From Antedon mediterranea (lineage: Eukaryota; Animalia; Echinodermata), in NCBI RefSeq assembly GCF_964355755.1, contig NC_092677.1, positions 4,300,101-4,364,100 on the forward strand: a DNA stretch of 64,000 bases. Direction: 5' to 3'. A program made the position numbers and the translations under genes. Positions 27,554 through 60,371 of this stretch are shown piece by piece (position 1 is the first letter of the stretch; each line of letters starts with the position of its first letter). The notes under the pieces were generated by a model, which was given only the letters and a program-made list of their open reading frames with translations, ran no database searches and was not told the DNA's origin.

Positions 27554-27642
27554 TAGCTTTACCTACAAGATCTATTCACTCATTTTAGAAGTACATTATT
27601 TGTACCTTTAAACTGAGTGAATAGATCTTGTGAGTAAAGCTA
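27554..27642. repeat. 89-bp near-perfect hairpin (TA-flanked MITE-like) in intron 13 of A copies
   Basis: tagctttacctacaagatctattcactca pairs with tgagtgaatagatcttgtgagtaaagcta. Copy at ~48473-48561. Confidence 0.75.
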
Positions 27643-32013: not shown

Positions 32014-32292
32014 CTCTGTCCATTCTGTAGGCTACCTAGCCCTGTCTCTGTCCATTCTGTAGGCTACCTAGCCCTGTCTCTGTCCATTCTGTAGGCTACC
32101 TAGCCCTGTCTCTGTCCATTCTGTAGGCTACCTAGCCCTGTTTCTGTCCATTCTGTAGGCTACCTAGCCCTGTCTCTGTCCATTCTGTAGGCTACCTAGC
32201 CCTGTCTCTGTCCATTCTGTAGGCTACCTAGCCCTGTCTCTGTCCATTCTGTAGGCTACCTAGCCCTGTCTCTGTCCATTCTGTAGGCTACC
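32014..32292. repeat. 32-bp minisatellite (ctctgtccattctgtaggctacctagccctgt), ~8.7 copies; ~4.7 copies in the paralogous site 52997-53154
   Basis: Exact 32-nt period (32014, 32046, 32078...). No spacers. Confidence 0.95.
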
Positions 32293-35200
32293 TGAATGGT
32301 TCTTTTGCTTTCCTATCGTTCTTTTGACAGTTTATTCGGTATGTACAGATGTATTCAATAGATTTACAGCATTTTATATTATAAATGCTTCCGCAGCTCC
32401 ATGTAAGGATGATGATTTTCATTGCGACAACAATAAGTGTGTTAAAGACTACAGGGTGTGCAATGGTATTGATGATTGTGGTGATAAGTCAGATGAACAA
32501 GACTGTCTACCTGCTAGTAAGTATTGGAATTTTTATCCACCCGTAAAATGATGGAACACACGAGTATTATTGATAATTTAGTAATAATTATCACCACCGC
32601 CATTTTTGTCTTTCTGTAATGGCGCTAGTTACAATCCGTTATGCATGAGTAATTAATGAATGACGTAATGCATAAACGGGCAAAGGTAATTAAGTTTGTA
32701 AAATGATGGAACGCGTGGGTATTAGGCATATATTTAAAATTTAAAGTAATAATTATTACCAATCATTATTATTTTTATTTTGCATAAATATATTTTGGAT
32801 TGTTTTATATACAGTTCCGTGTCGATCTGGGTACAGGAGGTATTAAATGGGAGGAGAATCCGGTTATTGTATTAGCGAAGACAGATGGTGTGACAGAAAT
32901 ATAGATTGTTACGATGGAGAAGACGAAGAATGTTCAGCAGATGACAGTGAGTAGAATCGGACATACCAAAGCTATTTCAGTTTAAGGGAGAAAACAAAAA
33001 TTCAAACAGCAATACATATTATAATAAAAAACTATTTAAATAAGCAGCTGCTTGTCTGTTAAATTGCCATTTATAAGCATGGTTACCTATTGGGGAAAGT
33101 ATTAGGTCTATACGTATTGATATGTACTTACAATTGCGAACTAACCACTGAGAGTTCATTGATGATTCGGCCAGTTAAAAACAGGCTTATAATGTATATA
33201 TTTCAGTTAAGTGCAAGGAGGACGAATGTTCATGTAAAAGCGGGGTAGAGGCGTCTTTTGAAACTGAATTTGTTGAAAAATATGGGACTAAGTATTGCAT
33301 TAGTGCCAAGCTAAAATGTGATGGTATTAGACATTGTGCGAATGATGCTGACGAAGCAAATTGTCAAGGTGATGTAATTTGTGTATGTTCAAAATATCGG
33401 TATTTATTAATAGCGCTTGTATAAATGCACCGAAACCATAACCATACAATATAAACGCTCTACTTTACATTTTTGGTAGGCCTATTGATGTATAATTTAT
33501 GCATCCTCAACATAACCCAGGACCTCCTGGTATAGGAAAAATGGTTCTTGGGACAGGAGCTGTAAGTGGTAGGCCTAGATAAAATGTCACTACCAATCTA
33601 GTACAAATTGATACTCGTTGTTTTTGTAGCAGGACAATGTAATGAGAATGAATTTACATGTGGAAACATCATTTGCATCCCGAATGATTATAAGTGCGAC
33701 GGGTTTTGTGACTGCGCAGACTGCAGGGACGAGTCTTCAGACATAGTTTGTGTATTTACGTGCACGAATGGTAAACATATTCCAAAAGAGGAAACGTGCG
33801 ATTATAAAAACCAATGCGGTGATAACAGCGATGAAGAGGGTTGTACGAATTTTCAAAGTACAGTAATTTTACTTTTATTAAACATTTATTTACAGACTGA
33901 TACAAAATACATTAATGAATGAATCTATTGATTGATTCAAAGAATGACTGGTAGATCTTCATAGATCTACCACTATCACCGACACAATTCTAAGCAATAC
34001 ACACATTATCAATTATCCTATACATTTAATTTTTCCCTATATGTTGATCTTCAATTTCTTTTGAAAGTTTAAGTTAGCCTACTTAGGTAAAATTTGTTTT
34101 CAAATAAATGACATAAGTATAAATTAAAGTAACGGCTTTTAAGAAGTGTTATTTTTTTCTCCTTACAGGTTGCAATGAAGAGTTTGAATTTCAGTGTGAT
34201 AATAAGCAGTGTATTCACAAGGCTTACCTTTGTGACGATAAAATAGACTGTTATGATTATAGCGATGAACGTTCATGTAAGTTAAATTTTTTTTTAAATT
34301 TAGAATTTAAAAATCTTTTTGTGTCTTAAGACTTTGATAAACATGTAATGACAAATGTGTTTGTTTCATTGCTATTTACTCTCAGCATTATGCTTCATTT
34401 GATTTTAGGTAATTGCTCAAGATTTCTTTGTAATAACAAGAAATGTGTTAACATTTACGCTGATTGTAACGGATTAGACGAATGCGGAGATGGCTCTGAT
34501 GAAATGTTCTGTAATGATACAGGTTTGTGTAGTCTTTCTACACCAATTTGGTCAAACTCGGCCCTAAACCAACTCGGCTCTTATCAACTCGGCTCCAGGT
34601 CTCGGTCTCAAATTAACACTTCTCAAGCCAACTCGACCCCTTGTCAACTCGGCCCCCAAGTCAAATTGGCCACAAACTATTCTGTCTTAATGAAGTGATT
34701 GATTAAGATTTTGAAGCAAATAAAATTATTTTCGGCAGTTGTATCAAGGTATTGACAATTCGGCAAGTGATGTTAGATTTAAATTTATATATTTATATTA
34801 TTATATATGTATTAGGCCTATAACTTAAGTAATTTTTTTGTAGGAATTCATTATCAAACACACGATCCTTCAAACTGGACGGATGACTGGTTTTTGCAAT
34901 ACGTAGACAAATTAGACATAGGTTTTGATATAACTACAGCAGTAAAATTGTTTAAACAAAACTTTAAAAATTGGGGATTTGAGCGAGTTTCAGGAGAGTT
35001 TCCACCAGACTGGATTAAGTTCCTTGTCTTCAGTAGCACAGCAGACTATAGCGACCTACAGAATGTTCTAAAACTTACCCAAGAAGAATTATTGGAACTA
35101 GGACATCAGGCTCAGCAGATGATTTTACAGTGTACTTATGGTGGTACGAAATGTGATATTGAAAAGTACGTGATACTTATAAAAACACCCAGTTTTTGAC

Positions 35201-37473
35201 GAAACTGAAATATTTAAAAATAATTATAAAAAATAAATATAAACAAGTTTGTGTTTCAGTTTTATTTTTTTCATTTTTCATTTCTAAAATATTATGGAAA
35301 TGGAAATGATAACCAACAAATTCAAAGCCTGTACACAGTTTATCAAATTTAAATAGAAAACAATTTAAAAGACAATAAAATGTTCAAACATGACATTACA
35401 GTCAAAATCTGAAACAAAAAATGTTGGTGAAACTAGACTGTGGTTTACATATAAATAGATTAATTCCACAAAACACAAAGCAATATATTTGTTGTGACTA
35501 GTAGTGACAGGCCTGATCGCAAATGAATTCCTTATTTGATTTCAGGGATTTTCATCTATTTCAACATGACAAATACGGTAACTGCTATACATTTAATAGT
35601 CATAAGGTGGAAAATGCGATAGTTCACAATGTAACACAACCAGGTGCCGAAAAGGGTTAGTTGATTATCCGATTATAAGAATTGTTTCAAAGGATTTTAA
35701 AAAGATCCAAAGTGTATGTATAATTATAACGAACAAAACATTTAGATTCTATTCGTAATTTGAATATATTACGTGCGTTTATGTTGGGTATTTTGTGATC
35801 GATATCCTTCTTCATTCATTTTATTTAATACCTATTTACTGTTTGATGATAAAGGTTTATGGCTAACGCTGTACACAGAACAACATGAATATGTTAGTAT
35901 CTTCGGACAAGATAGTGGCATCAAAGTGTTGGTGCATAATCAATTTGAAACACCGTTTCCAGAAGAAAATGCCATCACCGTCTCACCAGGCAGAGCTACG
36001 TCATTAGGCATCAAAAGGGTAAACATCATCTTTCTCATCCGTGGCAGAATGTTTTTCTTCATACCATTTGGACAACATAGGACATACTACCTAAAATCGT
36101 GACTGAAAAACATGACTGTCAAGAAAAGAGCGAGGAAGCGAGCCCCAACGTCCCCGCATGCGCACAGTGAATTAAAACGACTTATGTAACCTTAGCTTCT
36201 AGATCTTCTGTAGCTCCTTATAATATTAAGATTGATACACCTTTTTTCAAATTACCTTCGAAGTTCTACAGAAAGTCAAACAATATTTTTGTTTACAGCA
36301 CGAACTGATTCGGAAAGGTCAGCCATATGGTAACTGTATAGGTGAAGATGCAAGAGTGAAGTACTTGATTTACAAGGGAGACACAGTGTACACAGCTACT
36401 GTAAATATAACTATATCATTCATGTTTATTCTAAAGCACACCTTTTGAACGCCATTAAATGATTTTAAAACTGGAAATTAACCATAACACGCGCTGCAGC
36501 ATTTACATCGTTTAGTTGTCTTGCCTGAACTCTACTGTTATAACAGGCCTAAGCAGCATATATCTTTGTTAAAAATAATATACTTATTTTTATAATTGCT
36601 GTAAATGGTAGGCATACGTCACAATTTGTATTAATATGTGTAGTCATCGTTATCACCATCTTCTTCATACAACACCAACATGATTACATCATTACCTTAA
36701 TTTTAATTGATTTTCTATAGGCTTGCCAAAAATCGTGTTTACAACTAAAGTTACTAGAAGTTTGCGACTGTGTGGACACATTGCGTTATAATGGTTCCCG
36801 GCGTTGCCAACTACTGGATCTTGAACAAGGCTAGTTTAAACAATAGTTAACACCTTAAAGCCTGTTTTCCACTAAGAGAGTATTCGTTTGAATCGAAAGT
36901 ACTCATTATTCAGATTCCAAATCACTTTATGCGACGAATTCTATAGTTCCTTGAGTTCATCGAACTGTTTGAACTAGAATCCGCAGTATTTGTAAGATGC
37001 AAATACACATGTGCATTAATAACAATAATACTTCATTCATAAACACTCATTCCGTTAGCCGAGGAGTAAGCACATTTTAGGCCTAATTGCTATTTTTCAA
37101 AATCTCAACATATTCCCTTATTACCTATTAAAACATTGATATACAATATGAATACTGGATCCAAACGCGCTATTTTCCTTTTTATTTGCAGTAAAATATT
37201 ATATTTTTAAGGTCTATACATTTTGTTTTACCAATAGAACGCTGCCGCCAATTTGTGAATTATCTTCATTCTCAATATGTGATGCAATGTGATTGCCCAG
37301 TTGCTTGTCGGTAAGTTAAACTCGCCTCTGGTGATAACACTATGTTGAATTGAATTATAGTTATCACAAATTAAACAATATCATTGTACTGAAACGTATG
37401 GCATATTATGTAGGTGAGGTCCTCTAATAATTCCTATTTTTGTTATTTTTAGTGGAATTACACATGAAAAGAC

Positions 37474-37800
37474 TGAATTGAATTGATATTTATATTTATA
37501 CTGGGTAACCTCTTCAGTCAAAGACTGGTCTCCCAGAGGGCCCAGTTGGTGATCAGTGGCTGTGATGTACTAATACACCGGGGTAACCCCCTACTCGTCT
37601 CGAAAGATGTACTAGGTTCTTTAAAGTGCACACGTGCTAGATGTGTACACTGGACCTAAGGTTTATAGTCCTTATCCGAGAAGACTCGTTCTACCACCAG
37701 AACCATGGAGCGAGTGAGCCTCGAACCCTTGCCGATGTTATGGCTACGTAATTACGGTTCCACTGTCTTAACCGCTCGGCCACTCACTCACTCGAGTGAC
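37474..37800 (-). mobile_element. tRNA-derived SINE inserted into exon 15 of channel copy B1
   Basis: Reverse complement of 7636-7956 with few differences. It interrupts gaaaagac|cgtatcacaatc, with gac on both sides. The empty site is present in B2 (~62245-62260). Confidence 0.92.
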
Positions 37801-40292
37801 CGTATCACAATCACTTTGGCCTTCTGACAGATATGTGGTAGGTTTGCTGGTGGTTCTTCGTGCGAAGTATTTAATAATACAGTATAGAATAAAACATTAT
37901 TACGAATGGACTATAACTAATGCTGATTACTGGGTTACTATAACATTTTAAATTTTCTAGAAAACTTTGCTTGACAGTATTTACGTCCTTGATCCAAGAT
38001 ACAGTGAACATTTATAAGATCTTGAAACGGCACAGTAAGTAGCATGTTTAAAAAAGAGGCATTGTTATGCAATTGTTGTAATGATTTGATTATCTCTGAA
38101 AAACAAATTTTGTAGCCTTTTTTGTATAATACGGTAACTATTTATTATAATTATTTTTTAAATGTGTGTAAACAAACGAAATCTTGCTCGTCTGAACGTG
38201 TATTATGAGGATCTATCGTACGTCTCCATATCTGAAGTACCAGCTTATACAGTAAGTATACACAGTCAAATCTAGTCGGTCTTTCGACGTTTGCATATAT
38301 CACAAAATGGCAAAATACACAAACATCCATTTCTAGATCTCTGGAAATTGAGATAGTACTTCCATTGATAGTTGGGGTTGGGTGAAGTGTATGGAACATT
38401 TAAAGTTTCTATGTCAACATACAGCCTACGTTGATAGCCTATTGTATTCTGAATTTCAGTGGCAAAGCCTCTTCGGTGACGTAGGAGGAACTCTGGGGCT
38501 GTATATTGGTCTTTCATTGCTAACTGTTGTCGAATTTTGCGAATTCTTCATTGATATTCTTCTTTATTGTTGTAACAAAATGGTGAAGAGGAACAAAGTA
38601 CAGAACTCACCCGAGTTGTAGTTTCTTTGATGCAACCGCATGGAAAACACATATTTCCTATTTTCTTGTATATAACTTCAGTCTTATAGACAAGAAGAGT
38701 AGGCTTAACACAGTAGATTTAAATTATTAGATTATGTAATTTATACACACCAACTTTTATTTTAGGGAATTTTACAGCTTACTATGTCGGTCGGTTGGTC
38801 GGTAAACTTGAGCACGCGACTGCAGCCATGCATATGGCCTTGTTCTATGAACTAGCACAATATATTTTCCTCTTTTATAGAACTTTAAAGTAACACTGTA
38901 TACCAAATTAAATTTAATAAATTGCTACATAGTTTATAAGTACTTTCTTTTAGGGAAGGATGCGGTTTATTTATGTGTGTATATTTCATAGTAAAGGAAC
39001 ATGGAGATGACTAAAGTACACAATTTGTTCGGCAATTAAAAATAGCACGTCAATAGAATAGTCAATCTTGTGACGATCAAGTAATAGAAATCATTATTAA
39101 ATACAACACAATATAATCAAAGAAAAGAGTACTTTTGTCCACTTTGAAGTGTATTTAGTACAATGATTTATTGTGCTTGATATCAATTTTAGACTGTATA
39201 CTAGAATTTTTACAGGTCTTTTTTTGCATAGTTAATTTAGATTGTAGAGATTATTATGCCTTATATCAACCTACCTGTTTGTCTTGAACTATTTACAAAT
39301 TGTAAATTAAAAAATCAATCGATGCATGTTTTTTATTTTTTTTTAAATACACAATTCTGCAATACTAAATAACGTTTTAGTTTTATTATTATTTAGCATT
39401 ATTTTTCTTTATTTATTTATACTACAAATTTTATGAATATGTATTGTTATATTCCAAGATGTATTTTAAGTGGAGAGAGGCACTATATGTCAACATATCA
39501 TATTCATGGTCCTCTTCCCACGACGGTTGTTACATAATGCTTTGCATTTCTTTTTATTTTTTCAAAATTGTATTTATATGATTCATATGGACATTTTGTC
39601 TGAAATAAAGTTGAATTGAATAGTAAGCCTATTCTAATTGTTAAGCTTAGTATTCATAATAAAATTTACTTGTGTTTTTAAGTCCTGATGATAACTTATT
39701 ATCTTAATAAATAAATTAGCCTAAATTTTAGAGACCTACCAAAAATCAAACGATGTATGCATTAGCATATAAACTTTCAAAACTTTCTAGTGTGCATGCG
39801 CAGTTTAATACAATATAGTGCCCTCTATTAATTTTCCAGTCAAGGGCTGTTGGCGCGTTCTCTATTATGTCATAATTAATCATGAATTATTCATGATTTC
39901 TGCCCACGTTCGTCCTGGAAAAAAAAATTACGCGGGCTGTTGCAGTGCAGTTAGAAACAGTGTTTTTCAGGACACAGTAAATTGCTTAGTTTTAAAGCAT
40001 TAGGCTAGCAAAGACACGCTATCGTATTGATCTGCTACCGTACCATCAGTACATTGGCCAATTTGTCTTAATCTCACATAAGTGGCGTTGATTAAGTGGG
40101 CCTATCCAATACATAATTATGAATTCCCTAATCAAATTAGCAAACCTCAAAGTCAATAGTATAATAGCATTTTGTATTAATGTACATGTACGCTTGATGT
40201 GTGTTGATCGTCGCAATTTGTTCATTTTGTTGCTACTGCGCTGCTTGATACAACGATTACTAATAAGTTCTCGTAATTGGACGCCCACAACC

Positions 40293-42382: not shown

Positions 42383-45300
42383 ATGGCTCAAGAAGAAGAC
42401 TCTGTACTTGGAATAAGTCGAAAGTTCGGAGAAAACACTTCTTCACATGGTATACCACGGATAGTAGCGTCAAAATCGTATTTTGGAAAGATCTTCTGGA
42501 GTTGTTTGTATGTAGCTTCTCTAGGAGCGTTCACTTGGCAGGCCTATGTCCTCATCGATACATACTTCAAGTTTGAAGTTTCTATCAAAGTAAGTCGAAT
42601 TCAAAAGGTGTATAGTTTAACTTCACTCAAGGGCTATACATACAAAATCGAGGTTTACACTTTTGTACATTTAAAGCTCTGTCTGCACCATCAATTTTTG
42701 TGAAAAAAAAATGTGATGTGCCCATGTATAGACACGATGATGTCATATCCCTACCATAGTGGACACATCACATTATTTTTGTTGTCTAAGTAGTTTGATA
42801 GTGTAGACAGAGCCCAAGGAACTGCATTCATACGGCCCTTTTGTGGTCAATTGAATAATGACCCGATATTCCTTTATAATAGGCCTATAGTAACTTCTAC
42901 ATTTAGGCCTAACATCAAATTCATACATTTGCAGGGCTTTAACAGTAACGTTTGACTTATTTCCATTTTTGTAGAACTGAAATAGCAATTCTTTATAAAA
43001 GATTAAATCAAATTATTAATTACGCACATTTATATTAGAAAAGAAATGAATTTCTTGAAGTATTTCTTGTTTTGATTTTATTCGTTCAGTAATTAATTAA
43101 TAAAACGGATATTTCTTGCTTTGCTTTTATTTATTTTTGTCAGTACGTCGTTGAAAACTCAGACGCCAGACCCTTGCAATTTCCCGCCGTTACCTTGTGC
43201 AATACAAATCAAGTTCGCCGGTCTGTTTTGGCGTTACGTCATGAGTATGAGATACTATCGTCCATTGAAAACTACACAAATCGTTTACAATATTACGGTA
43301 AAACATTTTTTATTAGTATTTTGCGTCAATGTTTTGTTTTGTCAGCTCTGTCTTTATGGGACCCGATGATGTCATATCAGTACCATCACACTTTTTTTTA
43401 CACAAACTAGTTTGGCCCTGTTCCATTCTACCATTAAGGACCTAATAATTGTTTAGTCAGAGCGAATACATCTCTATGGTAAGACTTCTTTTTTTTCCCA
43501 AACCTAACGCCTTATCTTTGCTTCTCTATCTGAAAAAAACATCGATGTGTGTATGTAGGCCTAAATATGTATTCACATTTGTTTCTGCAGCTCCGTGTAA
43601 GGCTGGAGATTTTCATTGCGACAACAACAAGTGTGTTAAAGATTACAGGGTGTGCAACGGTATTGATGATTGTGGTGATAAGTCAGATGAACAAGACTGT
43701 CTACCTGAAAGTAAGTATTGGAATTTTTATCCACCCGTAAAATGATGGAACACACGAGTATTATTGATAATTTATTAATAACACCACCGCCATTGTTTTC
43801 TTTCTGTATTGATGCTAGTTACACTCCGTCATGCATGAGTAATATGATGGAACGCACGAGTATTATTGATAATTTAGTAATAATTATCACCACCGCCATT
43901 GGCTTTCTGTGATGGCACTAGTTACACTCCGTTATGTGTGAGTAATGAATGACGTAATACATAAGCAGTAAGATTGTATTCGTAGTCCACGTGACTGTGA
44001 ATTCCGGTAAATGCGTCTTGATTTTAAAAAGACAGTGTGTCTAAATAAAGTACGACGAATGCATTTAGCTGAGTATCATTGTTTTGTACTTGTCGTCATA
44101 ATATTTCATTACTAATCATTATTATATTTATTTTGCATAAATACATTTTTTTTTTGTTATAAAAAGTTCCGTGTCGATCTGGGTACAAGCGGTGTCAAAT
44201 TGGAGGAGAATCCGGTTATTGTATTAGCGAAGACAGATGGTGTGATAGAAATGTAGATTGTTACGACGGAGAAGACGAAGTTTGTACAGCGAATGACAGT
44301 GAGTAACATTAAGTTAAAGAACATTAAATTACCCAACTTCCTTAACATATTACTCCTTAAAATTAGAATAACAATGGAATATATATGAGGAAGAAGTATA
44401 AAATCATTGTATTTATCATTTCAAAATGAAATTAATAAAAGTAGTGGTTAATGCCACAAAAAAGAGGAAAAAAACATTTCTTACCGTACGAGGTAATAGT
44501 CATAGCCCAAAGTATGAGTTGGACTAGAATTACTATCAAAATTGAAAAGTTCCCATGCGCTGGATTATGCGAATTCATTATCATGTTTTGCCATCTACGA
44601 TAAGAGTTCATGACATTTACGCGAATATATTCGATTAGTTAAAAGCAAACTTTATGCATTTATTTCAGTTAAGTGCAAGGACGATGAATTTTCATGTAAA
44701 AGCGGGGTAGAGGCGTCTTTTGAAACTGAATTTGTTGAAAAATATGGGACTAAGTATTGCATTAATGCCAAGCTAAAATGTGATGGTATTAGACATTGTG
44801 CGAATGATGCTGACGAAGCAAATTGTCCAGGTGATGTAATAAAATGTTGTCTTGGTAATTGGAGTATGTTCAAAATATCGATATTTATTAATAGCGATAG
44901 CGCTTTTGTATAAATGCACCAAAACCATAGCCATACAATCTAAACGCTCTACTTTACATTTTTGGTAGGCCTATTAATGTATATGCATCCTCAACATAAC
45001 CCAGGACCTGCTTGTATAGGAAGAATGGTTCTTGGGACAGGCGGTGTAAGTGGTAGGCCTAGATAAAATGTCACTGCCAATCTAGTACAAATTGATACTC
45101 GTTGTTTTTGTAGCAGGACAATGTAATGAGAATGAATTTACATGTGGAGATATCATTTGCATCCCGAATGATTATAAGTGCGACGGGTTTTGTGACTGCG
45201 CAGACTGCAGGGACGAGTCTTCAGACATAGTTTGTGTATTTACGTGCACGAATGGTAAACAAATCCCAAAAGAGGAAACGTGCGATTATAAAAACCAATG

Positions 45301-48300
45301 CGGTGATAACAGCGATGAAGAAGGATGTACAGTATTCCCAAGTATAGTTATTTTAATTTTTGTCAAAACATTTAATAACTACGGTGGCTGATTTCCGCCA
45401 AAGAAAAAAATTATTTTATAATAATACGGCATTACGGGGTAATTAGGGCGTTATAATGCCGTAATTAGGGCGTTATAACGCCCTAAATACGGCGTAAATA
45501 TATATTTTTTTGGTAGGCCTATTAATGTATATGCATCCTCAACATAACACAGGACCTGCTTGTATAGGAAGAATGGTTCTTGGGACAGGAGTTGTAAGTG
45601 GTAGGCCTAGATAAAATGTCAATCTAGTACAAACTGGACTAAATATATAATCTGTTCACACGTACATGCCCCCCTCTCGGCGCATTCACAGATTTTAGAA
45701 AGTCACGTGGTACATTACTGGCCATCTTTGTGTCCAACTATGCCTGTGTAGTGTATGGAGTCGAGTTATGTGCTTAAAAAATGATAAATAATAAAAAATT
45801 CACAGGGTTTTAAATATCCAATTTAATATCAAAACAATCAACTAATACGTATTTTTATAAACTAATTTTTTTCTTTGGCGGAAATCAGCTTTTAAATAAA
45901 TTACAAAGTATAAAATTAAAGTAACGTCTTTTAAGAAGAATTTCTTTCTCTTTACAGATTGCACTGATGAGTTTAAATTCCAATGTGATAATAAGCAGTG
46001 TATTGACAAGACTGACCTTTGTAACGATAAAGAAGACTGTTATGATTATAGCGATGAACGTTCATGTAGGTTATTTATAATCTGTTAGCCTGTGTGTCCT
46101 AGGACTGTGTTTAACATGTAAAGACAAAAAATGTTTGTTTCAGTGCTATATACTCTCAACATTATGCTTCATTTAATTTTAGGTAATTGCTCAAGAATTC
46201 TTTGTAATAACAAGAAATGTGTTAACATTTACGCTGATTGTAACGGATTAGACGAATGCGGCGATGGCTCTGATGAAATGTTCTGTAATGAAACAAGTGA
46301 GTGTACCCTCGTCCCTAAACGGCCTAATCTAAGTCGGCTCTAAACCAACTCTCCCCGAGTAGGCCTAAATTAAACCCCAATCAGTCAACACCGTTCCCAA
46401 TAAAGTTACTAACAACTATAAGTCTATTCGGCAGTTGTGACAACGTGTTGATAAATGATGCAGATAAGATAGATTTAAGTTAATATGCCTATATTTGTTA
46501 TTTTATGTAATTAGTATTGTTTTTTTATATAGGAATTCATTATCAAACACACGATCCTTCAAATTGGACAGATGACTGGTATTTCCAATACGCAGACAAA
46601 TTAGACATAGGTTCTGATACATATGTGCTTGAGACAGCAGTAAAATTATTTAAGGAATACTTCAAAGATTGGGGATTTGAGCGAGTTTCAGGAGAGTTTC
46701 CACCAGACTGGATTAGATTCCTTGTCTTCAGTAGCACGGCAGACTATAGTGACCTACAGAATGTTCTAAAACTTACCCAAGAAGAATTATCGGAACTAGG
46801 ACATCAGGCTCACCAGATGATTTTACAGTGTACTTATGGTGGTACGAAGTGTGATATTGAAAAGTACGTGAAAATGGTTTGACAGTTTTATTAATGATAA
46901 CACCTACAGTAGTTTTTGTTAATATAAAACAAATATAAACAAATCCTCAAATTATTTCTGTTTCTGTTTTTTATTTTCCATCTCTCAATTTAGAATATAT
47001 AACATATCATTTAAATGGAAAGTATGACCAAAATAGCAAAGCAACTACTGTAGATGTCTACAAAAAAAGTGGGAATAGACCGTCCTTACCTGCACACGTT
47101 TTTTTTTCATTCAGTTAGGTGTCACAAATGAATTTAAGCTTATTTGATTTCAGGGATTTTCACTTATTTCAACATGACAAATACGGTAACTGCTACACAT
47201 TTAACAGTCATAAGAAGGAAAATGCGACAAAACACGATGTATCACAACCAGGTGCCGAAAAAGGTAAGTTGGTAACCGATTGTAAGAATCCAAACGAAGA
47301 TTTGAGAAAGAGCCGAAGTTTTTCAAAATACAAACTAACATAGCATTATATTCGATTCGTAGTTTGAATCTCTTTTCACCCATTTACTTTTTGGTAATAA
47401 AGGTTTAAAGCTAACGCTGTACACAGAACAACATGAATATGTTAGTATCTTCGGACAAGAGAGTGGCATCAAAGTGTCGGTGCATAATCAGTTTGAAACA
47501 CCGTTTCCAGAAGAAAATGCCATTACCGTCTCACCAGGCAGAGCTACGTCATTAGGCATAAAAAAGGTAAACGTCAATGCAATCATTTTTCTTATCATTG
47601 AGAGATGTAATGCAATTGATGAAGAAGCTCTTTGACATGATTTACACTTGCTTTGCTTCGTTGGTTGCAAAGTAACTAGTTCCTTATGTCTTAGGTTTTT
47701 GAAAATCAATAGTTCCCTATATCACGATCGTTATAATCGAAACGTGTATTTTGAAATGTATACAATGTTTTATTTGCAGCACGAACTGATTCGGAAAGGC
47801 CAGCCATATGGTAACTGCACAAGTGAAAATGCAACCGTGAAGAACTTGATTTACAAGGGAGACACAGTGTACACAGCTACTGTAAATAACAATGATATCA
47901 TTCATGTTTATTTTACTCCATGAATTGATTTAAAAATTGAAAGGTTTCCATGTATTGTCTGTTTGTACATTGGTCTGTATTCAAATTATTCCTAATCAGC
48001 AGATCCAAGTTAAAAATATAAATATTATCATCATTATCATATAATTGCTGTAATGGTAGGTCTACGTCTTACCTATTTAGTATCTATTAACCCAATCATT
48101 ATTTTCATTTCTTATTTTCAATAGGCTTGCCAAAAATCGTGTTTACAACTAAAGTTACTAGAAGTTTGCGACTGTGTGGACACATTGCGTTATAATGGTT
48201 CCCAGCGTTGCCAACTACTGGATCTTGAACAAGGCTAGTTTAACCAAATGAACACACAACATTAGCAAACATTGAAGCCACTGCTGGCGCGAAAAAAAAA

Positions 48301-50016
48301 ATTCATTCTTCAATTCTTTTCGTAATTTTTATTCAGCCAAAATAAATATTTAACATGTAGGCTATACTACAAAAAGTGATTTTACTGATTAAGCGAAAAC
48401 TCAAGGGACTATAATTCGCATATGTGGACAATGAAAATACGAATACACATATGTACATAGGCTAAACCAGCCTAGCTTTACCTACAAGATCTATTCACTC
48501 ATTTTAGAAGTACATTATTTGTACCTTTAAACTGAGTGAATAGATCTTGTGAGTAAAGCTAAACATTTGTATAGACCTATATCATTGCAACAGTATTTCT
48601 AAAAGCTCAACATATTCCATTAGTACGCATCACAACATTAATATAAGGCGTACAACATACTAGATTCAATTTACCCGTAATTGCAGTGAAATATTATATT
48701 TCTAAAGCCTATACTTTTTTTTTTACCAATTAGAACGTTGCCGCCAATTTGTGAATTTTCTTCATTCTCAATATTTAATAAAATGTGATTGTCCAGTTGC
48801 TTGTCGGTAAGTTAATGTATCTTTCTAAAACTGAAACTAAATTCGCTTCTTGACTGGACTGGTAACATGTATGGTGAATTATTGTGTTAAGTTGTAACAA
48901 ATTAAACAAAACCATTGTATTGGTGGAAAGTCATGGACTACTATGTTGTGACGTCTTCTTGTAGCAAAAGAATAATTTCTATTTTTTTTTGTTTTTAGTG
49001 AAATTACATATGAAAAGACCGTATCACAATCACTTTGGCCTTCCGATAGATATGTGGTAAGTTTGCTGGTACGGTGAAGGAACTGAGAACTCGTGCCAAG
49101 GATTTAATAATATAAGATTATAACATTATTACGAATGGACTATACCTAATAAACTGATTTCGAAATAAGTTACAATAACATTTTTAATCTTCCAGAAAAC
49201 TTTGCTTGACAGTATTTACGTCCTTGAGCCAAGATACAGTGAACATTTATACGATCTCGAAACGGCACAGTAAGTAGCATGTTTCAAAAAGAGGCAATGT
49301 TTTCGCGCCAATAGAAAGCGTCAGCTTATACGCATGCGTAGAGACCGATTTTAAAGATGGAAACATGAATACGCATGACGCTTTCGATTCGTGTGAACAA
49401 ATTCGCCTAATGGAAATCGGCTTTACACATTATTAACTGTAATGATCAGATTTGCCAGACGCCTTTTAAAATTAGAGATATTCAGTCTTCAATGTATAAA
49501 TTGTATTTGTATAATAACTATTTTTCTATAATTACTTTTGAAATGTGTGTAAACAGAAGAAATCTTGCTCGTCTGAACGTGTATTATGAGGATCTTTCGT
49601 ACGTCTCCATATCCGAACTCCCTGCTTATACAGTAAGTATACACAGACACGTCTATTTAGTATTACTTTCAAGGACCTTTTGGACGTCCATAATATCACA
49701 AAAAAATCGATCAAAAATTCTGAACCTTTAATTTCAATAATCCTATAGGCCTATTTTGTGAAAAATCGAGATTGAGTGAGAAAATTGACCGGGTGATAAA
49801 ATAATCCGATATTTCAACGTAATGTACTTTATAACCAATTATTCTGAATTTCAGTGGCAAAGCCTCTTCGGTGACGTAGGAGGAACTCTAGGGCTGTATA
49901 TTGGTCTTTCATTGCTAACTGTTGTCGAATTCTGCGAATTCTTCATTGATATTCTTCTTTATTGTTGTAACAAAATGATGAAGAGGAACAAAGTACAAAG
50001 CATACCGGGCATGTAG
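42383..50016 (+). CDS. Intact DEG/ENaC/ASIC-family cation channel with 7 extracellular LDLa modules, copy A2, 18 exons, ~827 aa
   Basis: Exons 42383-42589, 43144-43297, 43591-43710, 44167-44298, 44669-44830, 45114-45341, 45958-46065, 46183-46296, 46533-46863, 47154-47263, 47403-47566, 47780-47881, 48125-48233 (GC donor), 48734-48806, 48999-49056, 49196-49269, 49557-49632, 49855-50016 = 2484 nt, open. ENaC motifs: TSSHG, TM1, FPAVTLCN, LGHQ..MILQC, YGNCYTFN, Cys-rich thumb, WPS, LNVYY, TM2 LFGDVGGTLGLYIGLSLLTVVEF. LDLa motifs such as CNGIDDCGDKSDEQDC. Confidence 0.9.
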
Positions 50017-53000
50017 TTCATAAGATGCAACCAGGGAAGAATTGTAATTTAACTCTTCGCTGATGCAACACAATTTCCCATTTTTGTGTATATATGGCCC
50101 AAGACTTAATTATATATTATGACGAGTAAATTATAGTTTATACGCAACAAGCACGTTTTTGTTGTTGCGTCTAGGTAGATTTCAAGGTAGTAGGGAGGTT
50201 TCGCAACCTTACGAATACGATAACGAAAACGGATACGTCATACATTTGTGAAACTTTTGAGCTGATCCCCATTTCATATTCGTAAAGCGTATTCGTGTTG
50301 ACGAATATCACCAATCATGTTCGTAACTACAAAACGAGTATAATTTTTGATCTATTTTGCACATTTTGCATTTGAATCTGGAATGATTCATGATTATAAT
50401 ATAATTATAGATTTATTGAATGTAATTTACTAAAGTAATTTACTAAAATGCCATGTCAATTTGATAAATAGCACTTTCTAAAGTCCTCACTCGCTTTGAT
50501 GTTACGCTAGGTCTAGGCAGCCGGCCAAGTACCTGCGCTTCGCTCAAATTTACCGCAGTCATATTTTGGACGCGCCTCAATATTTCGTTGCCATGCGAAA
50601 CAGATTTTTTATGGCTTACGAAAAGGAATACGTGTGCGTGACGTATCGTATTTCGTTATCGTATTCGTAAGATTCCGAAACCTCTCTAATGGCATCATAT
50701 GTCCTGGTAAATGATCGGTGTTGGACCTGTTGGTAACTATAAATAGAAGGTAGTCCATGTAGTATGTATAAACTAATTAAATGGAAACAGCCATAATTTT
50801 GTAAAACGGCGGCGTGTCGAGCAAAGCAAAAGTACTTTGATATTATATGATTGTAATTGATTGAGCTTGACAGTGATATGATTATTTAGAAAGATGCTAT
50901 ATACATAAATATTTTCCATTTCTTGGACTTGTAAATCTATTTATATGTCTCTTCAAAATATAAAAGACAAATAAATAAATAATAAATAAATAAATAATGC
51001 ATGTTGTGAAATTATGTACACTTCTGTATAAGCCTAGATAAAGCTATTTATATGTGTATTCAAAATATAAAACACAAATAAATAAACTAATAAATAAAAA
51101 ATGCATGTTTTGAAAGGTTTTAAAATAATGCACAGTTGGATTTACATTTTAACCAGCTTACTGTTAGTGTGTGGTTATTTATTAGCTATGATTAATAGAA
51201 TAAATAAAGATTGTAGCACGATATTCATTTACATAATTTACTCATTATGAATAAAAAATGAAAACCTTCATAAAATTATATTATTTCCCATGCGCGGATT
51301 GACAAAACAATTGAGTAAATAAATAGTAGGCGTGGTTTCCACTAATACGCAAATGACGTAGGCCTACAACGCAAGTAATAACAACAACTCATGTGATCTC
51401 TCGCTTGCGTGTATATGCGTTGCGTCCTACTTTAGAAATCATTTTGACTTAAATATCAACGACTAGGCACTGAGAAAAAAATATAACAAGTATTCGAACA
51501 TCGACATTTAAATAACCTTGCTGTAAATTGAAAACATTATTACGTTAATTAAAACCAGAATCGTGTTTTCATTTAGGTATTGTATTGTGAATCACATAAA
51601 GAAAGTACATTTTTATAGTAATATAATAGTAATAAGAACAATTACATATTGATAGCCAATATGCTTTACACTCTCAAATGGAAAAATCGATCGGATTTGG
51701 AATGAATATCGTCCTAAATAATGTTACAATAACCGAAAGACGCTCATTCTATCACCAACTAACACTGCATTGTCGTCGTGAGTAAACAATGTCGGACTTG
51801 TGATCAAGTTGAGATTTTGTATCAGTATTTGCATTTCCGCGCTCATATACGGAAGAAGTACCACAAACTGGCAAGCTACGCGGGAACGAATTTACTAACA
51901 AATATTTTCGTAATACGTACATCCACGCGCGCATAATTCAGAAACTTATCCGAGATCAAGATTGATGCAAGAATATTAGGAAACGATTCGATGTTGTCAT
52001 TGAGAACATGTCTCAAGAAGAAGAGGAAACTGTACTTGGAATAAGTCGAAATTTCGGAGAAAACACTTCTTCACATGGTATACCACGGATAGTAGCGTCA
52101 AAATCGTATTCTCTTGGCAGGCCTATGTCCTCATCGATACATACTTCAAGTTTGAAGTTTCTATCAAAGTAAGTTAAGAACGTATCTATCATTTAATTTT
52201 ACAAAGAAAATTTAAGAAAACAAGCTTACTGATGGCTACACAAATCATTCCAATCAAAGAATGTTTATATTTTTATAACTAATTTAGAAATCACATCCAC
52301 ACGGCCAATCGTAGACTTTTCGATGTTTGTCTGAAATAAAAGCTCAAGTAGTATACGTATGAAACGCCATATGTGCCAAAATATTAATCTTTTTACTAAT
52401 AATTAAGTCAAAAGGCCTCGTTAAAAGTGATTAGGAATTAAATTGTAACTTTTGACTTACAGTATTTCCATTTTTGTTTAAACTAATATAGCAATTACCG
52501 AAAATTAGGCATAATGAAAATAATAATTATAACAGAAAAAATTAATAAAACGAATATTTCTTGCTTTGCTTTTATTTATTTTTGTCAGTACGTCGTTGAA
52601 AACTCAGACGCCAGACCCTTGCAATTTCCCGCCGTTACCTTATGCAATACGAATCAAGTTCGCCGGTCTGTTTTGGCGTTACGTCATGAGTATGAGATAC
52701 TATCGTCCATTGAAGACTACACATATAGTTTGCTATATTATGGTAATAATGTTTTAGTTAATAATGTTGCGTCGTCAGAAGATTTCCCTGATATGTAGGC
52801 ATACCGTAGTGCAAGATAAGGGGGTCGTAGTGGGAGATGAGAGAATTACAATGAATGCAATATACCGGTTTGTGACCATGTAAAGCTTATTTCGGCGTTT
52901 TTAAAATGATGGTCAAAAAGGTTTTTTATCTGCATTTATCTCTCCTTAAATAATATGGTCTGCACTAATTCTGTCCTCTAATTCTGCTTCTCTTTGACTC

Positions 53001-56000
53001 TGTCCATTCTGTAGGCTACCTAGCCCTGTCTCTATCCATTCTGTAGGCTACCTACCTAGCCCTGTCTCTGTCCATTCTGTAGGCTACCTAGCCCTGTTTC
53101 TGTCCATTCTGTAGGCTACCTAGCCCTGTCTCTCTGTCCATTCTGTAGGCTACCTGAATGGTTCTTTTGCTTTCCTATCGTTCTTTTGACAGTTTATTCG
53201 GTATGTACAGATGTATTCAATAGATTTACAGCATTTTATATTATAAATGCTTCCGCAGCTCCATGTAAGGATGATGATTTTCATTGCGACAACAATAAGT
53301 GTGTTAAAGACTACACAGGGTGTGCAATGGTATTGATGATTGTGGTGATAAGTCAGATGAACAAAACTACTGTCTACCTAAAGGTAAGTATTGGAATTTT
53401 TATCCACCCGTAAAATGATGGAACACACGAGTATTATTGATAATTTAGTAATAATTATCACCACCGCCATTTTTGTCTTTCTGTAATGGCGCTAGTTACA
53501 ATCCGTTATGCATGAGTAATTAATGAATGACGTAATGCATAAACGGGCAAAGGTAAGTAAGTTTGTAAAATGATGGAACGCGTGGGTATTAGGCATATAT
53601 TTGAAAATTTAAAGTAATAATTATTACCAATCATTATTATTTTTATTTTGCATAAATATATTTTGGATTGTTTTATATACAGTTCCGTGTCGATCTGGGT
53701 ACAGGAGGTGTCAAATGGGAGGAGAATCCGGTTATTGTATTAGCGAAGACAGATGGTGTGACAGAAATATAGATTGTTACGATGGAGAAGACGAAGAATG
53801 TTCAGCAGATGACAGTGAGTAGAATCGGACATACCAAAGCTATTTCAGTTTAAGGGAGAAAACAAAAATTCAAACAGCAATACATATTATAATAAAAAAC
53901 TATTTTAATAAGCAGCTGCTTGTCTGTTAAATTGCCATTTATAAGCATGGTTACCTATTGGGGAAAGTATTAGGTCTATACGTATTGATATGTACTTACA
54001 ATTGCCAACTAACCACTGAGAGTTCATTGATGATTCGGCCAGTTAAAAACAGGCTTATAATGTATATATTTCAGTTAAGTGCAAGGAGGATGAATTTTCA
54101 TGTAAAAGCGGGGTAGAGGCGTCTTTTGAAACCGAATTTGTTGAAAAATATGTAACTAAGTATTGCATTAGTGCCAAGCTAAAATGTGATGGTATTAGAC
54201 ATTGTGCGAATGATGCTGACGAAGCAAATTGTCCAGGTGATGTAATTTGTGTATGTTCAAAATATCGGTATTTATTAATAGCGCTTGTATAAATGCACCG
54301 AAACCATAACAATACAATATAAACGCTCTACTTTACATTTTTGGTAGGCCTATTAATGTATAATTTATGCATCCTCAACATAACCCAGGACCTCCTGGTA
54401 TAGGAAAAATGGTTCTTGGGACAGGAGCTGTAAGTGGTAGGCCTAGATAAAATGTCACTGCCAATCTAGTACAAATTGATACTCGTTGTTTTTGTAGCAG
54501 GACAATGTAATGAGAATGAATTTACATGTGGAAACATCATTTGCATCCCGAATGATTATAAGTGCGACGGGTTTTGTGACTGCGCAGACTGCAGGGACGA
54601 GTCTTCAGACATAGTTTGTGTATTTACGTGCAGGAATGGTAAACATATTCCAAAAGAGGAAACGTGCGATTATAAAAAACCAATGCGGTGATAACAGCGA
54701 TGAAGAGGGTTGTACGAATTTTCAAAGTACAGTAATTTTACTTTTATTAAACATTTATTTAGAGACTGATACAAAATACATTAATGAATGAATCTATTGA
54801 TTGATTCAAAGAATGACTGGTAGATCTTCATAGATCTACCACTATCACCGACACAATTCTAAGCAATACACACATTATCAATTATCCTATACATTTAATT
54901 TTTCCCTATATGTTGATCTTCAATTTCTTTTGAAAGTTTAAGTTAGCCTACTTAGGTAATATTTGTTTTCAAATAAATGACATAAGTATAAATTAAAGTA
55001 ATGGCTTTTAAGAAGTGTTACTTTTTTTCTCCTTACAGGTTGCAATGAAGAGTTTGAATTTCAGTGTGATAATAAGCAGTGTATTGACAAGGCTTACATT
55101 TGTAACGATATAGAAGACTGTTATGATTATAGTGATGAACGTTCATGTAAGTTATTTTTAATCTGTTAGCCTGTGTGTCCTATGACTGTGTTAAACATGT
55201 AATGACAAATGTGTTTGTTTCATTGGTATTTACTCTCAACATTATGCTTCATTTGATTTTAGGTAATTGCTCAAGATTTCTTTGTAATAACAAGAAATGT
55301 GTTAACATTTACGCTGATTGTAACGGATTAGACGAATGCGGGGATGGCTCTGATGAAATGTTGTGTAATGATACAGGTTTGTGTAGTCTTTCTACACCAA
55401 TTTGGTCAAACTCGGCCCTAAACCAACTCGGCTCTTATCAACTCGGCTCCAAGTCTCGGTCTCAAATTAACACTTCTCAAGCCAACTCGACCCCTTGTCA
55501 ACTCGGCCCCCAAGTCAAATTGGCCACAAACTATTCTGTCTTAATGAAGTGATTAATTAAGATTTTGAAGCAAATAAAATTATTTTCGGCAGTTGTATCA
55601 AGGTATTGACAATTCGGCAAGTGATGTTAGATTTAAATTTATATATTTATATTATTATATATGTATTAGGCCTATAACTTAAGTAATTTTTTTGTAGGAA
55701 TTCATTATCAAACACACGATCCTTCAAACTGGACGGATGACTGGTTTTTGCAATACGTAGACAAATTAGACATAGGTTTTGATATAACTACAGCAGTAAA
55801 ATTGTTTAAACAAAACTTTAAAAATTGGGGATTTGAACGAGTTTCAGGAGAGTTTCCACCAGACTGGATTAGATTCCTTGTCTTCAGTAGCACGGCAGAC
55901 TATAGCGACCTACAGAATGTTCTAAAACTTACCCAAGAAGAATTATTGGAACTAGGACATCAGGCTCAGCAGATGATTTTACAGTATACTTATGCTGGTA

Positions 56001-56531
56001 CGAAATGTGATATTGAAAAGTACGTGATACTTACAAAAACACCCAGTTTTTGACGAAACTGAAATATTTAAAAATAATTATAAAAAATAAATATAAACAA
56101 GTTTGTGTTTCAGTTTTATTTTTTTCATTTTTCATTTCTAAAATATTATGTAAATGGAAATGATAACCAACAATATCAAAGCCTGTACACAGTTTATCAA
56201 ATTTAAATAGAAGACAATTTAAAAGACAATAAAATGTTCAAACATGACATTACAGTCAAAATCTGAAACAAAATATGTTGGTGAAACTAGACTGTGGTTT
56301 ACATATAAATAGATTAATTCCACAAAACACAAAGCAATATATTTGTTGTGACTAGTAGTGACAGGCCTGATCGCAAATGAATTCCTTATTTGATTTCAGG
56401 GATTTTCATCTATTTAAGCATGACAAATACGGTAACTGCTATACATTTAATAGTCTTCTTTCCCTTTTCAGGGAATTTATTGGTTCAAAATATATTGGCT
56501 TTTGGCCCTAATACAAACAAATAAAAATTAA

Positions 56532-59500
56532 CTATAACTTAAGATAATGGTTTCTTCTTTCAAAAGCAAAGTAGACGTATTTTCCTAAATTATAAGTAAA
56601 ATTTGTGTTGGAAAGTAATAAACAAAGCTTATTAATAGAAAGAAAAACACGAATAAATCTTGGAATAAAACTTTTTCTTAAATCATTGTAAAATGTGCAT
56701 TGCAAAATAAAATGATATTCATCCTCAACAATGTTCTTTTTACATAATTTACACGTTCTCTTATATCTTTCTACACCCTCCCATCTGCCCTTTTCAATTT
56801 CTAGCTCTAATATCCCTAAACGTAACTTAGTTAATAATCTTCTTTGTTTAAAATTAATGATGTTGGTCAAGTGATAACTTAAACATATTTCTTTTTTATA
56901 AAGAGAAAAGAGCCTTAACTTATTATGTAAACTAAATTTTTGAATGCATTTTTGTTTTTCAATATCACATAAGCGCAACTTAAATTCTCTCAAAAATAAA
57001 CCTTTACTATTAACATATTGTTGTAACCATATATAACCAAAAGCAGTAGAAAAGAGTAAGTGTTTGACCTGTTGTGCCCAACAATTCTCATTACGGTTAA
57101 CTTTTCTAAGTTGAAATTCATAACACTTAAAAATGAATCTGTCATGATCTAAAGTAATAATGTGTAACCAAAATCTTATAACTGTAACTAAACAATCCAC
57201 AGAAAGTGGTAATCTACCTAACTCAGAAGTAACAGCGGCATTTGGTGCATTTTTTCCAACTTGCAATAAATATCTACAAAATTTAGTGTGTGTTTTTTCT
57301 ATAATGTTTGTGCTATCTGACATTCCCCAGATTTCGCTTCCATACGTTAAAATAGGAAGTATTTTCACATCAAAGATATGGTTCCATGTATTAATTGGAA
57401 GAAAAGATAAGTTACGATAAATGAATGATTTTAAGCAGAATAAACTTTGATTTGCTTTTTGTTGATTATGTTGCATTGAGTTGTTCCATGCACCATTTGA
57501 ACTAAAAATAACACCAAGATAATTATACGAATTAACAATTTTTAATTGAATATTTTTATACTTCCATTTTTCAATGTTCCTTAAATTGCGGCCATTTTTA
57601 AAAACCATAATTTTGGATTTTGTAGTGTTTACAGTAAGTTTCCAAGTATCACAATAAAGTTCAAGTTTATTTATTAATTTTTGGAGACCTTTCACCGTAT
57701 CACTAACAAGCACTAAGTCATCTGCATAAAGAAGATGATTCATATGACAATCTCCAATTTGAATGAAATCGTTTACCTGATTAAGTATACCACTCAAATC
57801 ATTAATGTAAATATTAAAGAGTAAAGACGACAACGGAGAACCTTGTTGTACTCCAATCGAACAATTAAAAGATGGACTAAGTTTGTTGCCAATTTTAACA
57901 TGAGCAGATAAGTTTTGGTATAAGGAATTTATTATGTGTAACATTCTGCCTGAAACACCGATACATTTCAACTTATGTAGTAAAAGTGTATGATTTATAG
58001 AGTCAAAGGCACGTTTAAGATCAACAAAACAAACAAAAATCCTACCCCGCTTTTTATCTAAGTATTTAGAGATGAGGGTATCTAAAATGAATATATTATC
58101 TGTCGTTCTATATCCCTTACGAAAGCCTGCTTGTTCCTCATGAATTAACTTTTTACTATTTGTAAATTGTGTTAACCTAGAATTAAGAATATTTAAAAAT
58201 ATTTTTCCTAGGATTGGAATTAAAGAAATACCTCTATAATTTTCAGGTTTGTTTTTATCTCCATTTTTAAAAATTGGAACGATTAAGCTTGTTGCCCATT
58301 GTTTGGGAAATTTTTCAACTAAAAATATGGCGTTAAAAAGAATTTTTAAAATATCAAAAATAATGTTGGGGGCGTTTAGCAAAAATTCAAAATTCATTCC
58401 ATCAATGCCGGGAGCTTTTCCACTATTTTGAGAATTAAATGCTTTTTTTATTTCATCCAACGTTATGTCGTGGTCTAAATAATCATCGTCTTCATTCTGT
58501 TGGCATTCTGTGATTTTTGGCAACTCAGCGCTACCAATAGACTCATCGTTTTTAAATAGGTTCTTAAAATGAATATAACATTGATTAATAGAAAGTTCGC
58601 AAGATAATTTCTGTTTTGTCTTCAACTTCATCCAAAACGTTTTGCTATCCTTTGTATTGAGTGAATCGATAATTTGTTTGCGTATTCTTTTATGAAAGTT
58701 ATTTTTTTTGCATTTTAATAGCGATTTATATTGCTTTTTTATCTGAATATAATTATTTAAAAAAGGTTGAGTGCGCATAATTCTAAATCTCTTTAATGAC
58801 TGTTTAACCTGCATTTTAAGGTTCTTACAATCTTTATCAAACCATTCGTTTCGTTTTGTAGAAGTTGAAGATTTACTTGTTTGTGTATACTTAATTCCTT
58901 TACATACGTATTCAAAAATTTTACATAAATGTGAAACTGCCTCATCAATTTTATTTTGAGAGATAGCATTCATAAAATCATTATCAATAGTTTCAATGAT
59001 ATCATGTTCCCATCTGACTTTGGATGCATTAATGTAACTGTTGGACCATTTGAACGTACTCTGGGTAAACGTGTCATCTTCATTGACAATCATTTTGGTG
59101 TGTTCTTTGTCTTTGAATTGAATACTAAAGGCAATTGGCATATGATCCGATTCAACACGGTCATCAATTCTTAAATAAGATATTAGTTTAAAGTTGTTTG
59201 AGTTAGTAAGAAGGTAATCACATACACTTTTACCTTGTGAACTGATAAATGTAAAACCACTGGATGATTCTTTATCAATTCTACCATTTGTGATTCGCAT
59301 ACCAGTTTCTTTGCAAAATTCTAATATATCTTTACCGTAGCAATTTAGTATACAATCAGAATTCGTTCTACTTTCAATCCGGATGTTGTCTTCCAGAAAA
59401 AGATTATTGTTCCATGTGTCATTTTCGTCAGCAGATATGTAATCGTCCTCCGAACCAGTTCTACCATTAAAGTCGCCAACTACATATACTATGTCTGATA

Positions 59501-59921: not shown

Positions 59922-59963
59922 AGATGGTTCAGATTGTTCTTCATTAGGACCACGGCCAAAACC

Positions 59964-60371
59964 CTATTTTGTGAGGTTTATGATTTTGTTGTCTTCTACG
60001 TTGAATGTATATACTTCGTCGCCTATAAACAGCTTATCATATCTGAGCCGAAAACGATCGTTGTTTTTGATTGCTTGTTGTATCCTTGGTTGTAGGCCTT
60101 TTCTAATTTTACGGACTCTGAAAGTATAATCTTCACCCATGTTAATTTTTGATTTATTTCCAGTCATTTTCCTTTTGAGTGCTCTATTTTTGGACATTAT
60201 TTCATCTTTTTGTTTGTAGCTAGTAAGTTTTGCTATGATTGGTCGTGGGTTACTTTTGCTGTGCAATCTATGCGCTCTCTCGAAAGCGACCTCTTCGATT
60301 TCTAAATTTGTTGTTATATAATCCTTTACCTTTCGTTCGCAGTCAAGCCACGTTTCATTTCTATCATCTTT
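59964..60371 (-). CDS. LINE ORF1, C-terminal part (5'-truncated), L1-ORF1-like RRM/CTD region
   Basis: Open from the insertion edge: KDDRNETWLDCERKVKDYI...FERAHRLHSKSNPRPIIAKL...EDYT...RYDKLFI...TK*. RAHR and PRPII motifs are typical of this ORF1 type. Confidence 0.8.
   Translation of the reverse strand, partial: KDDRNETWLDCERKVKDYITTNLEIEEVAFERAHRLHSKSNPRPIIAKLTSYKQKDEIMSKNRALKRKMTGNKSKINMGEDYTFRVRKIRKGLQPRIQQAIKNNDRFRLRYDKLFIGDEVYTFNVEDNKIINLTK

Follow-up and report, generated by a model that had tools for sequence, protein, structure and literature searches.

The A2 gene and its LDLa block

The 64,000 bp stretch analysed here (the window; Antedon mediterranea contig NC_092677.1, positions 4,300,101–4,364,100 of the forward strand) contains a gene, A2, whose predicted product is a DEG/ENaC channel with seven LDL-receptor class A (LDLa) modules in its extracellular finger. 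A2 occupies 42383–50016 on the + strand, and its 18 exons joined by coordinate give a frame of 2484 nt, encoding 827 aa plus stop; 16 of the 17 introns are GT-AG and intron 13 is GC-AG. Its parts, in window coordinates and with the evidence in parentheses, are as follows.

42383–42589, +: exon 1, with the start, the HG re-entrant motif (42446–42451) and the first transmembrane helix, TM1 (ASC, E 2e-9)
43144–43297, +: exon 2, with the FPAVTLCN strand, the first finger helix and a phase-1 donor (Pfam; helix predicted in the orthologue model)
43591–43710, +: exon 3, LDLa1, a putative constant base module (Pfam; spliced to exon 4 in sequencing run X5)
44167–44298, +: exon 4, LDLa2, position-conserved across the clade of relatives (Pfam, comparison of relatives)
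44669–44830, +: exon 5, LDLa3, whose long loop is also present in Anneissia (Pfam, alignment; spliced to exon 6 in X5)
45114–45341, +: exon 6, LDLa4 (8 Cys) and LDLa5 (4 Cys) (Pfam, alignment)
45173–45199, +: YKCDGFCDC of LDLa4 in exon 6, the aromatic-plus-acid site
45958–46065, +: exon 7, LDLa6 (Pfam, X5 splicing)
46183–46296, +: exon 8, LDLa7, a putative return base module (Pfam; X5 joint 46296 to 46533)
46533–46863, +: exon 9, the remaining finger, with the clade's PPDW...DYSDL segment and the LGHQ..MILQC strand
47154–47263, 47403–47566 and 47780–47881, +: exons 10–12, palm and beta-ball, with YGNCYTFN (Pfam, X5 splicing)
48125–48233 and 48734–48806, +: exons 13–14, the Cys-rich thumb, with the GC-AG intron between them (X5 splicing)
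48999–49056, 49196–49269 and 49557–49632, +: exons 15–17, knuckle and last palm strands (X5 splicing)
49855–50016, +: exon 18, with TM2, the degenerin-position Gly (49870), the GLS filter (49903–49911), a short tail and the stop

An earlier note on this DNA had reported an intact 18-exon frame of ~827 aa with DEG/ENaC landmarks, and exon joining and a Pfam scan (covering 16 of the 18 exons) agree with it. ASC (PF00858) is found above the curated Pfam cut-off in exons 1, 2, 11 and 18 and more weakly in exons 10, 13 and 17. In the protein, the HG motif is at aa 22–23, FPAVTLCN at aa 82, LGHQAHQMILQC at aa 496–507, YGNCYTFN at aa 529 and GDVGG..GLYIGLS at aa 780–793, with GLS 791–793 as the G-x-S filter in TM2. 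The pore half has HG, a Gly at the degenerin position followed by an Asp, and GLS, and the protein shows the features that define DEG/ENaC channels: two TM helices round a large ectodomain, HG before TM1, and FPxVTxCN. There is no ASIC-type post-TM1 His in aa 59–82 (in mouse ASIC1 this is H73, just after TM1, according to the accessible text of PMC10507113), and no PPxY, the C-terminal PY motif, in the tail. Judged by its sequence, the A2 product is a true DEG/ENaC protein, and not an ENaC, an ASIC or an LDL receptor.

The seven LDLa modules recognised in the earlier note are all above the curated cut-off (PF00057), with matches in each of exons 3–8 (E 8e-13 to 2.6e-5) and two LDLa stretches in exon 6. 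The block spans aa 121–408 and replaces the interval equivalent to residues of about 108–229 of human ENaC beta, which places it in the finger, as that note had proposed; its best PDB match is LRP2. It contains 42 Cys, six in each of five modules, eight in LDLa4 and four in LDLa5. The LDLa exons are all phase 1-1, a signature of shuffled exons. LDLa4 carries an aromatic-plus-acid pattern of the lysine-binding kind, whose exact positions we take to be those scored here. The block is acidic (66 D+E versus 31 K+R) and the terminal D-E pair is kept in all seven modules, as would suit sensors of extracellular Ca2+. This explanation is nonetheless very improbable, because sea-water Ca2+ would saturate such sites and inner LDLa modules are exchanged for other kinds of module in other members of the group.

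Splicing, annotation and the crinoid orthologue

The one reason for treating run X5 as RNA (its label is 'RNA? a guess') is that GT-AG introns are skipped in its contigs; contigs from four sequencing runs are dominated by repeats and hold no useful joints. The X5 contigs skip exactly introns 3, 5 and 7–15 (11 of the 14 introns inside 42900–49300) at the predicted ends, and this includes GC-AG intron 13. They join exon 8, with LDLa7, to channel exon 9 at depth 6, the short side of this joint being 30 letters, one under the tool's bridging bar, and a loose end runs from exon 16 into exon 17. The contigs reveal junctions, not one full-length transcript. That LDLa and channel exons share a transcript, as the earlier note supposed, is borne out at the joint of LDLa7 to exon 9 and is left without support at introns 2, 4 and 6 (junctions 2–3, 4–5 and 6–7), which are unseen as spliced in the X5 contigs. 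One contig extends 94 bases into intron 2 and another 67 bases into intron 6; these extensions may represent unspliced RNA, DNA or real short forms. A direct skip from exon 2 to exon 9, the splicing pattern that the note had raised against itself, is not listed among the X5 contig joints.

Exon 9 is identical to part of the A. mediterranea RefSeq protein XP_071958809.1 (502 aa, 'degenerin unc-8-like'), which begins inside intron 6 and covers exons 7–18 with two modules, lacking HG, TM1 and five modules. The 18-exon model is, from sequence comparison, the better one, because Anneissia japonica XP_033126039.1 aligns with it end to end, module for module. We consider it extremely improbable that the seven-module form is not made and that a short form (RefSeq exons 7–18, or one skipping from exon 2 to exon 9) takes its place: the start of the RefSeq model in intron 6 and the three unseen junctions favour it, but that model has neither HG nor TM1, echinoderm and hemichordate models keep a YY-x-PC motif across the exon 2–3 junction, and exons 3–4 and 5–6 are spliced in X5. 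A2 is a real, conserved gene, with splicing mostly confirmed.

XP_033126039.1 (839 aa) keeps the seven LDLa modules one to one with A2, and identities are 162/288 in the LDLa block, 64/107 in the N-terminal core and 239/351 in the C-terminal core. Both crinoids have the extra Cys pair in LDLa4 and an aromatic residue at its site, and in both LDLa5 is missing its first and third Cys, presumably disulfide partners of each other. An AlphaFold2 model of the orthologue, built on an 89-row alignment, has good confidence over the whole chain (pLDDT 87.6, pTM 0.77) and helices at 40–69 and 787–828. Its top structural match is ENaC beta (Z 31.6, rmsd 3.5, 345 aligned), with ASIC and FaNaC coming within 2 Z units, and over all entries it matches ENaC, ASIC and FaNaC at Z 25–32; the palm and beta-ball fold that marks the family is present in the model, and the thumb Cys are nearly invariant in the alignment of relatives. 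A domain scan of the orthologue found only ASC and LDLa, with no EGF repeats and no YWTD propeller. When the orthologue was divided into three fragments to dock its LDLa block to the ectodomain (alignment not used), the score was 0.00, and ESM Atlas matches are to ASC clusters (scores 0.85) and LDLR clusters, separately only.

Relatives, local copies and neighbouring genes

ASC and LDLa occur together in 14/42, 27/33 and 30/51 of the nearest sequences in three sets scanned, all of these relatives being predicted proteins. With a custom LDLa profile, LDLa is present in 46 of the 150 best representatives, found with a query that holds two modules and so favours LDLa carriers. The carriers include Anneissia, Acanthaster, Amphiura, Ptychodera, Saccoglossus and Glandiceps, as well as the acoel Symsagittifera, the shrimp Penaeus japonicus and five gastropod genera. 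The suggestion of the earlier note that the architecture exists among unannotated invertebrate predictions is correct for echinoderms, hemichordates, an acoel, a shrimp and gastropods; the note made too little of the insert, which belongs to a clade-wide module slot.

The inserts of relatives also hold kringle, PAN, CUB, TSP1, SRCR, F5/8C, ShK or HYR modules, and those of amphioxus members hold F5/8C, kringle and Xlink but no LDLa; all of these are extracellular binding modules. Loops range from 2 to 13 modules, and the first begins 40–47 aa past FPxVTxCN in 38 of the 50 relatives with two or more. Antedon module 2 is the best match for 22/35 second modules and 9/106 middle modules. The aromatic-plus-acid site is present in 0/64 first or last modules and 27/132 inner modules of 32 proteins (after removal of four near-duplicates; the sequences are related, hence not independent), and this distribution, together with the conservation of module 2, fits a fixed base with a variable, ligand-facing middle. 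On this evidence we regard the insert as a shuffled module slot of the whole clade, not a one-off, and across the clade the loop's middle part would be an exchangeable cassette that sets ligand specificity.

A tree was built from 46 chosen channel cores with the insert removed, none of them a characterised channel. Fourteen ambulacrarian LDLa channels form a clade (98/96) within a 29-row group (100/99), which also holds acoel, shrimp, amphioxus, Owenia and module-free ambulacrarian channels and in most of its members shares the finger segment W..F...S...D(Y/F)SDL. Five gastropod LDLa channels nest elsewhere among LDLa-free rows; they lack this segment and their first module begins 51–52 aa after FPxVTxCN. 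A single LDLa origin in the ambulacrarian and gastropod channels was rejected (approximately unbiased test, p 1.2e-6; at least 4 state changes), the group tested having been named among these 46 chosen rows after the tree was seen. Placement relative to characterised channels is by PDB similarity alone, in which ENaC ranks first.

An R-x-K/R-R site is present within the insert of 23/52 LDLa-bearing channels. This would be compatible with a loop that acts as an autoinhibitory lid cut off by proteolysis, like the GRIP of ENaC, whose topological slot it occupies. For A2 such a lid is improbable, given that no R-x-x-R is found in its protein or in the Anneissia orthologue and that the modules are disulfide-bonded, though proteases of other kinds might cut it; the same absence leaves ENaC-like activation by furin, one form of the proteolytic control raised in the earlier note, unsupported.

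Several other features of the relatives can be noted. P0072, P0074, P0080 and P0234 are sister channels without modules, in which the finger carries a long low-complexity insert, and several polybasic sites in P0072 suggest protease processing. A near-canonical F-type lectin fucose motif lies in the F5/8C module of P0003–P0007, P0010–P0012, P0014, P0067 and P0227, and several Ptychodera copies of F5/8C-bearing channels share one contig. These hemichordate-type F5/8C channels are candidates for glycan-gated channels. P0002 and P0045 form a further crinoid paralogue pair, whose Antedon member is on the 28.6-Mb contig of P0001 and is annotated as a fragment.

The window has four copies of the gene in the order A1-B1-A2-B2, arising from a repeat of about 21 kb. 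The A1-B1 and A2-B2 units are 98.2% identical over 10.5 kb and may stem either from a genuine tandem duplication or from two haplotypes that the assembly placed one after the other. A2 alone is intact, and the three broken copies, missed in the earlier note, are as follows.

21456–29096, +: copy A1, with 18 coding differences from A2 in 2484 nt and a stop in exon 6 (codon 303)
30968–38636, +: copy B1, a paralogue, about 90–97% identical per exon, approximate end
52008–62291, +: copy B2, with frameshifting indels in exons 1, 3, 6 and 15 and a LINE in exon 10

B1 is interrupted by stops in exons 4 and 16 and by an insertion in exon 15, and its exon 17 acceptor is lost; exons 16–18 of B2 were not found within the window. 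The GC donor of intron 13 is present in all four copies (48234, 27318, 36830 and 61604). A scripted split of the A2–B1 differences in the LDLa exons gives 17 silent and 36 replacement changes, which are uninformative because B1 is dead.

The LINE in B2 exon 10 (56456–60372, −) contains an open frame of 1143 aa for endonuclease plus reverse transcriptase (59963–56535) and an upstream 143-aa frame, and is probably young. An element of about 320 bp splits B1 exon 15 (37474–37793) and has a 95% identical inverted copy upstream (7636–7953). Elsewhere in the window are a single-exon rhodopsin-family GPCR frame of 284 aa with a DRY motif (15847–14996, −), exons of a cyclic-nucleotide-binding-domain gene (1789–6880, −; weak Pfam match), and exons of a coiled-coil gene without a Pfam match (17354–17998, +), which we take to resemble CCDC113.

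Function of the loop and known systems

We tentatively favour, at somewhat less than an even chance, a reading in which A2 encodes a sodium channel whose activity is modulated when a protein ligand binds the tip of the loop. The seven-LDLa loop would act as an antenna for an extracellular protein, shifting channel opening. From what is known of the family, the channel would be a trimer that conducts Na+; LDLa1, 2 and 7 would form a fixed base that connects the loop with the finger helices, and LDLa4, near the tip, would offer a putative lysine-binding site, with three per trimer giving avidity. Ligand-induced movement could pass from the base modules to the finger, the thumb and the gate, as in ENaC and FaNaC. 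In the accessible text of PMC6197857, GRIP sits between finger helices 1 and 2 and gates via finger and thumb; in that of PMC11026163, FMRFamide binds the same finger corner in FaNaC, and this corner is called important for gating in the superfamily. Also in favour of the reading are the one-to-one conservation of the modules in Anneissia, the predicted fold of that orthologue, the regular start of the first module in relatives, the restriction of the aromatic-plus-acid site to inner modules, and the other binding modules, lectin-like ones among them, that relatives carry. Ligand and gating of the A2 channel are, throughout, what we infer.

Several observations weigh against this reading, among them the unspliced stretches and unseen junctions, the short RefSeq model and the single intact copy in four described above. 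Skipping of all six LDLa exons leaves an open 539-aa channel. The calcium-site acids are replaced in modules 1, 6 and 7 (D to N) and in modules 3 and 5 (D to H or Q). Some clade members, such as P0072, have a long insert with no recognised module. In ten hemichordate-type proteins the lectin-like motif, H-x26-R-x-D-x4-R, is close to the published fucose-binding HX24RXDX4(R/K) (PMC5712786, accessible text) but two residues off its spacing. The C. elegans channels EGAS-1 to -4, compared below, gave no currents in oocytes according to the available text of PMC10424705. In both crinoids the aromatic-plus-acid site is present in only one of the seven modules, LDLa4, and none of the seven forms an adjacent site-bearing doublet. 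The principle of the site is that of PMC8239462, in whose accessible text RAP-type binding needs two adjacent site-bearing repeats; lipoprotein binding, which the earlier note had suggested, and a ligand site on each of its ~21 modules per trimer are therefore unlikely.

That six of the seven modules are without a ligand site would also fit a loop with no part in gating, one that serves to anchor, cluster or traffic the channel or to bring in a partner subunit or a protease, with the exon 9 finger segment responsible for gating; the DYSDL segment is shared by clade members without modules. We think this quite unlikely, in that modules always lie in the gating-control interval and at fixed spacing. 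Alternatively, the loop could tie the channel to the extracellular matrix as a tethered mechanosensor, an unlikely but serious explanation. TSP1, CUB, Xlink and HYR in the relatives are matrix-type modules and loop length is variable, and the same finger corner has been proposed as a matrix-tethering site of mechanosensitive DEG/ENaCs (PMC11026163, accessible text). However, lectin-like, kringle and PAN cassettes better fit recognition of varied soluble or surface ligands, as does the rapid gene turnover in the window.

Extended from A2 to its relatives, ligand recognition at the loop tip makes it likely, as far as domain content can indicate, that the modular channels of the clade respond to proteins or sugars outside the cell. 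A wider proposal, possible but doubtful, is that an unnamed bilaterian 'modular-antenna' DEG/ENaC clade comprises ionotropic receptors for macromolecules, in which protein or glycan binding opens the sodium pore directly and LDLa was recruited to the slot at least twice. The gating finger would have received its LDLa, kringle, PAN, CUB, SRCR or fucose-lectin-like modules by exon shuffling, and ligands might come from mucus, gamete, microbe or wound signals.

DEG/ENaC channels are known to respond to protons, short peptides, ions, force and proteolysis, and the wider proposal, if true, would add direct electrical sensing of macromolecules. It would also imply many orphan receptors in echinoderms and hemichordates, with module types hinting at their ligands, and a natural chassis for modular ligand-gated channels. 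Whether or not the loop gates, domains have been shuffled repeatedly at a single structural hot spot, and genes of this kind are split or misnamed by automatic annotation (degenerin-like, LRP2-like). The literature search, made in listings and abstract openings of open papers and in part with weak queries, found none describing ASC plus LDLa and, in line with the earlier note, no functional description. By term look-up, 'LDL' is absent from the accessible text of the DEG/ENaC phylogeny papers PMC9822975, PMC10507113 and PMC9949801, the ENaC cleavage paper PMC8791634 and the hemichordate genome papers PMC4729200 and PMC11175523; the 700-sequence tree of PMC9949801, as far as its available text goes, samples Acanthaster, Ptychodera and Branchiostoma and may include members without comment. 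The LDLa-bearing DEG/ENaC is apparently an undescribed variant, whose chief interest is the clade-wide exchangeable module slot.

Among known systems, vertebrate ENaC alpha, beta and gamma (6WTH, 9BLR) are the best PDB sequence match of the A2 core (E 1.8e-42). The insert lies between finger helices, as does GRIP, but A2 has an LDLa array in place of GRIP and neither a furin site nor a PY motif. FaNaC (8ON7, 7YVB) shares its fold with the orthologue model (Z 25–30) and its ligand also acts at the finger; it binds a short peptide in a helical pocket, whereas A2 has separate inserted modules. The nearest published precedent is EGAS-1 to -4, which likewise combine DEG/ENaC sequence with extracellular repeat modules, in their case EGF rather than LDLa (accessible text of PMC5203786 and PMC10424705). 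LDLR and LRP share with A2 tandem LDLa repeats on phase 1-1 exons; A2 differs in being a two-TM channel without EGF or a YWTD propeller, and in having one site-bearing repeat, not doublets. Finally, the CUB-LDLa auxiliary proteins Neto, SOL-2 and LEV-10 have LDLa modules that act on the gating or clustering of ligand-gated channels, but they are separate proteins that act in trans on unrelated channels.

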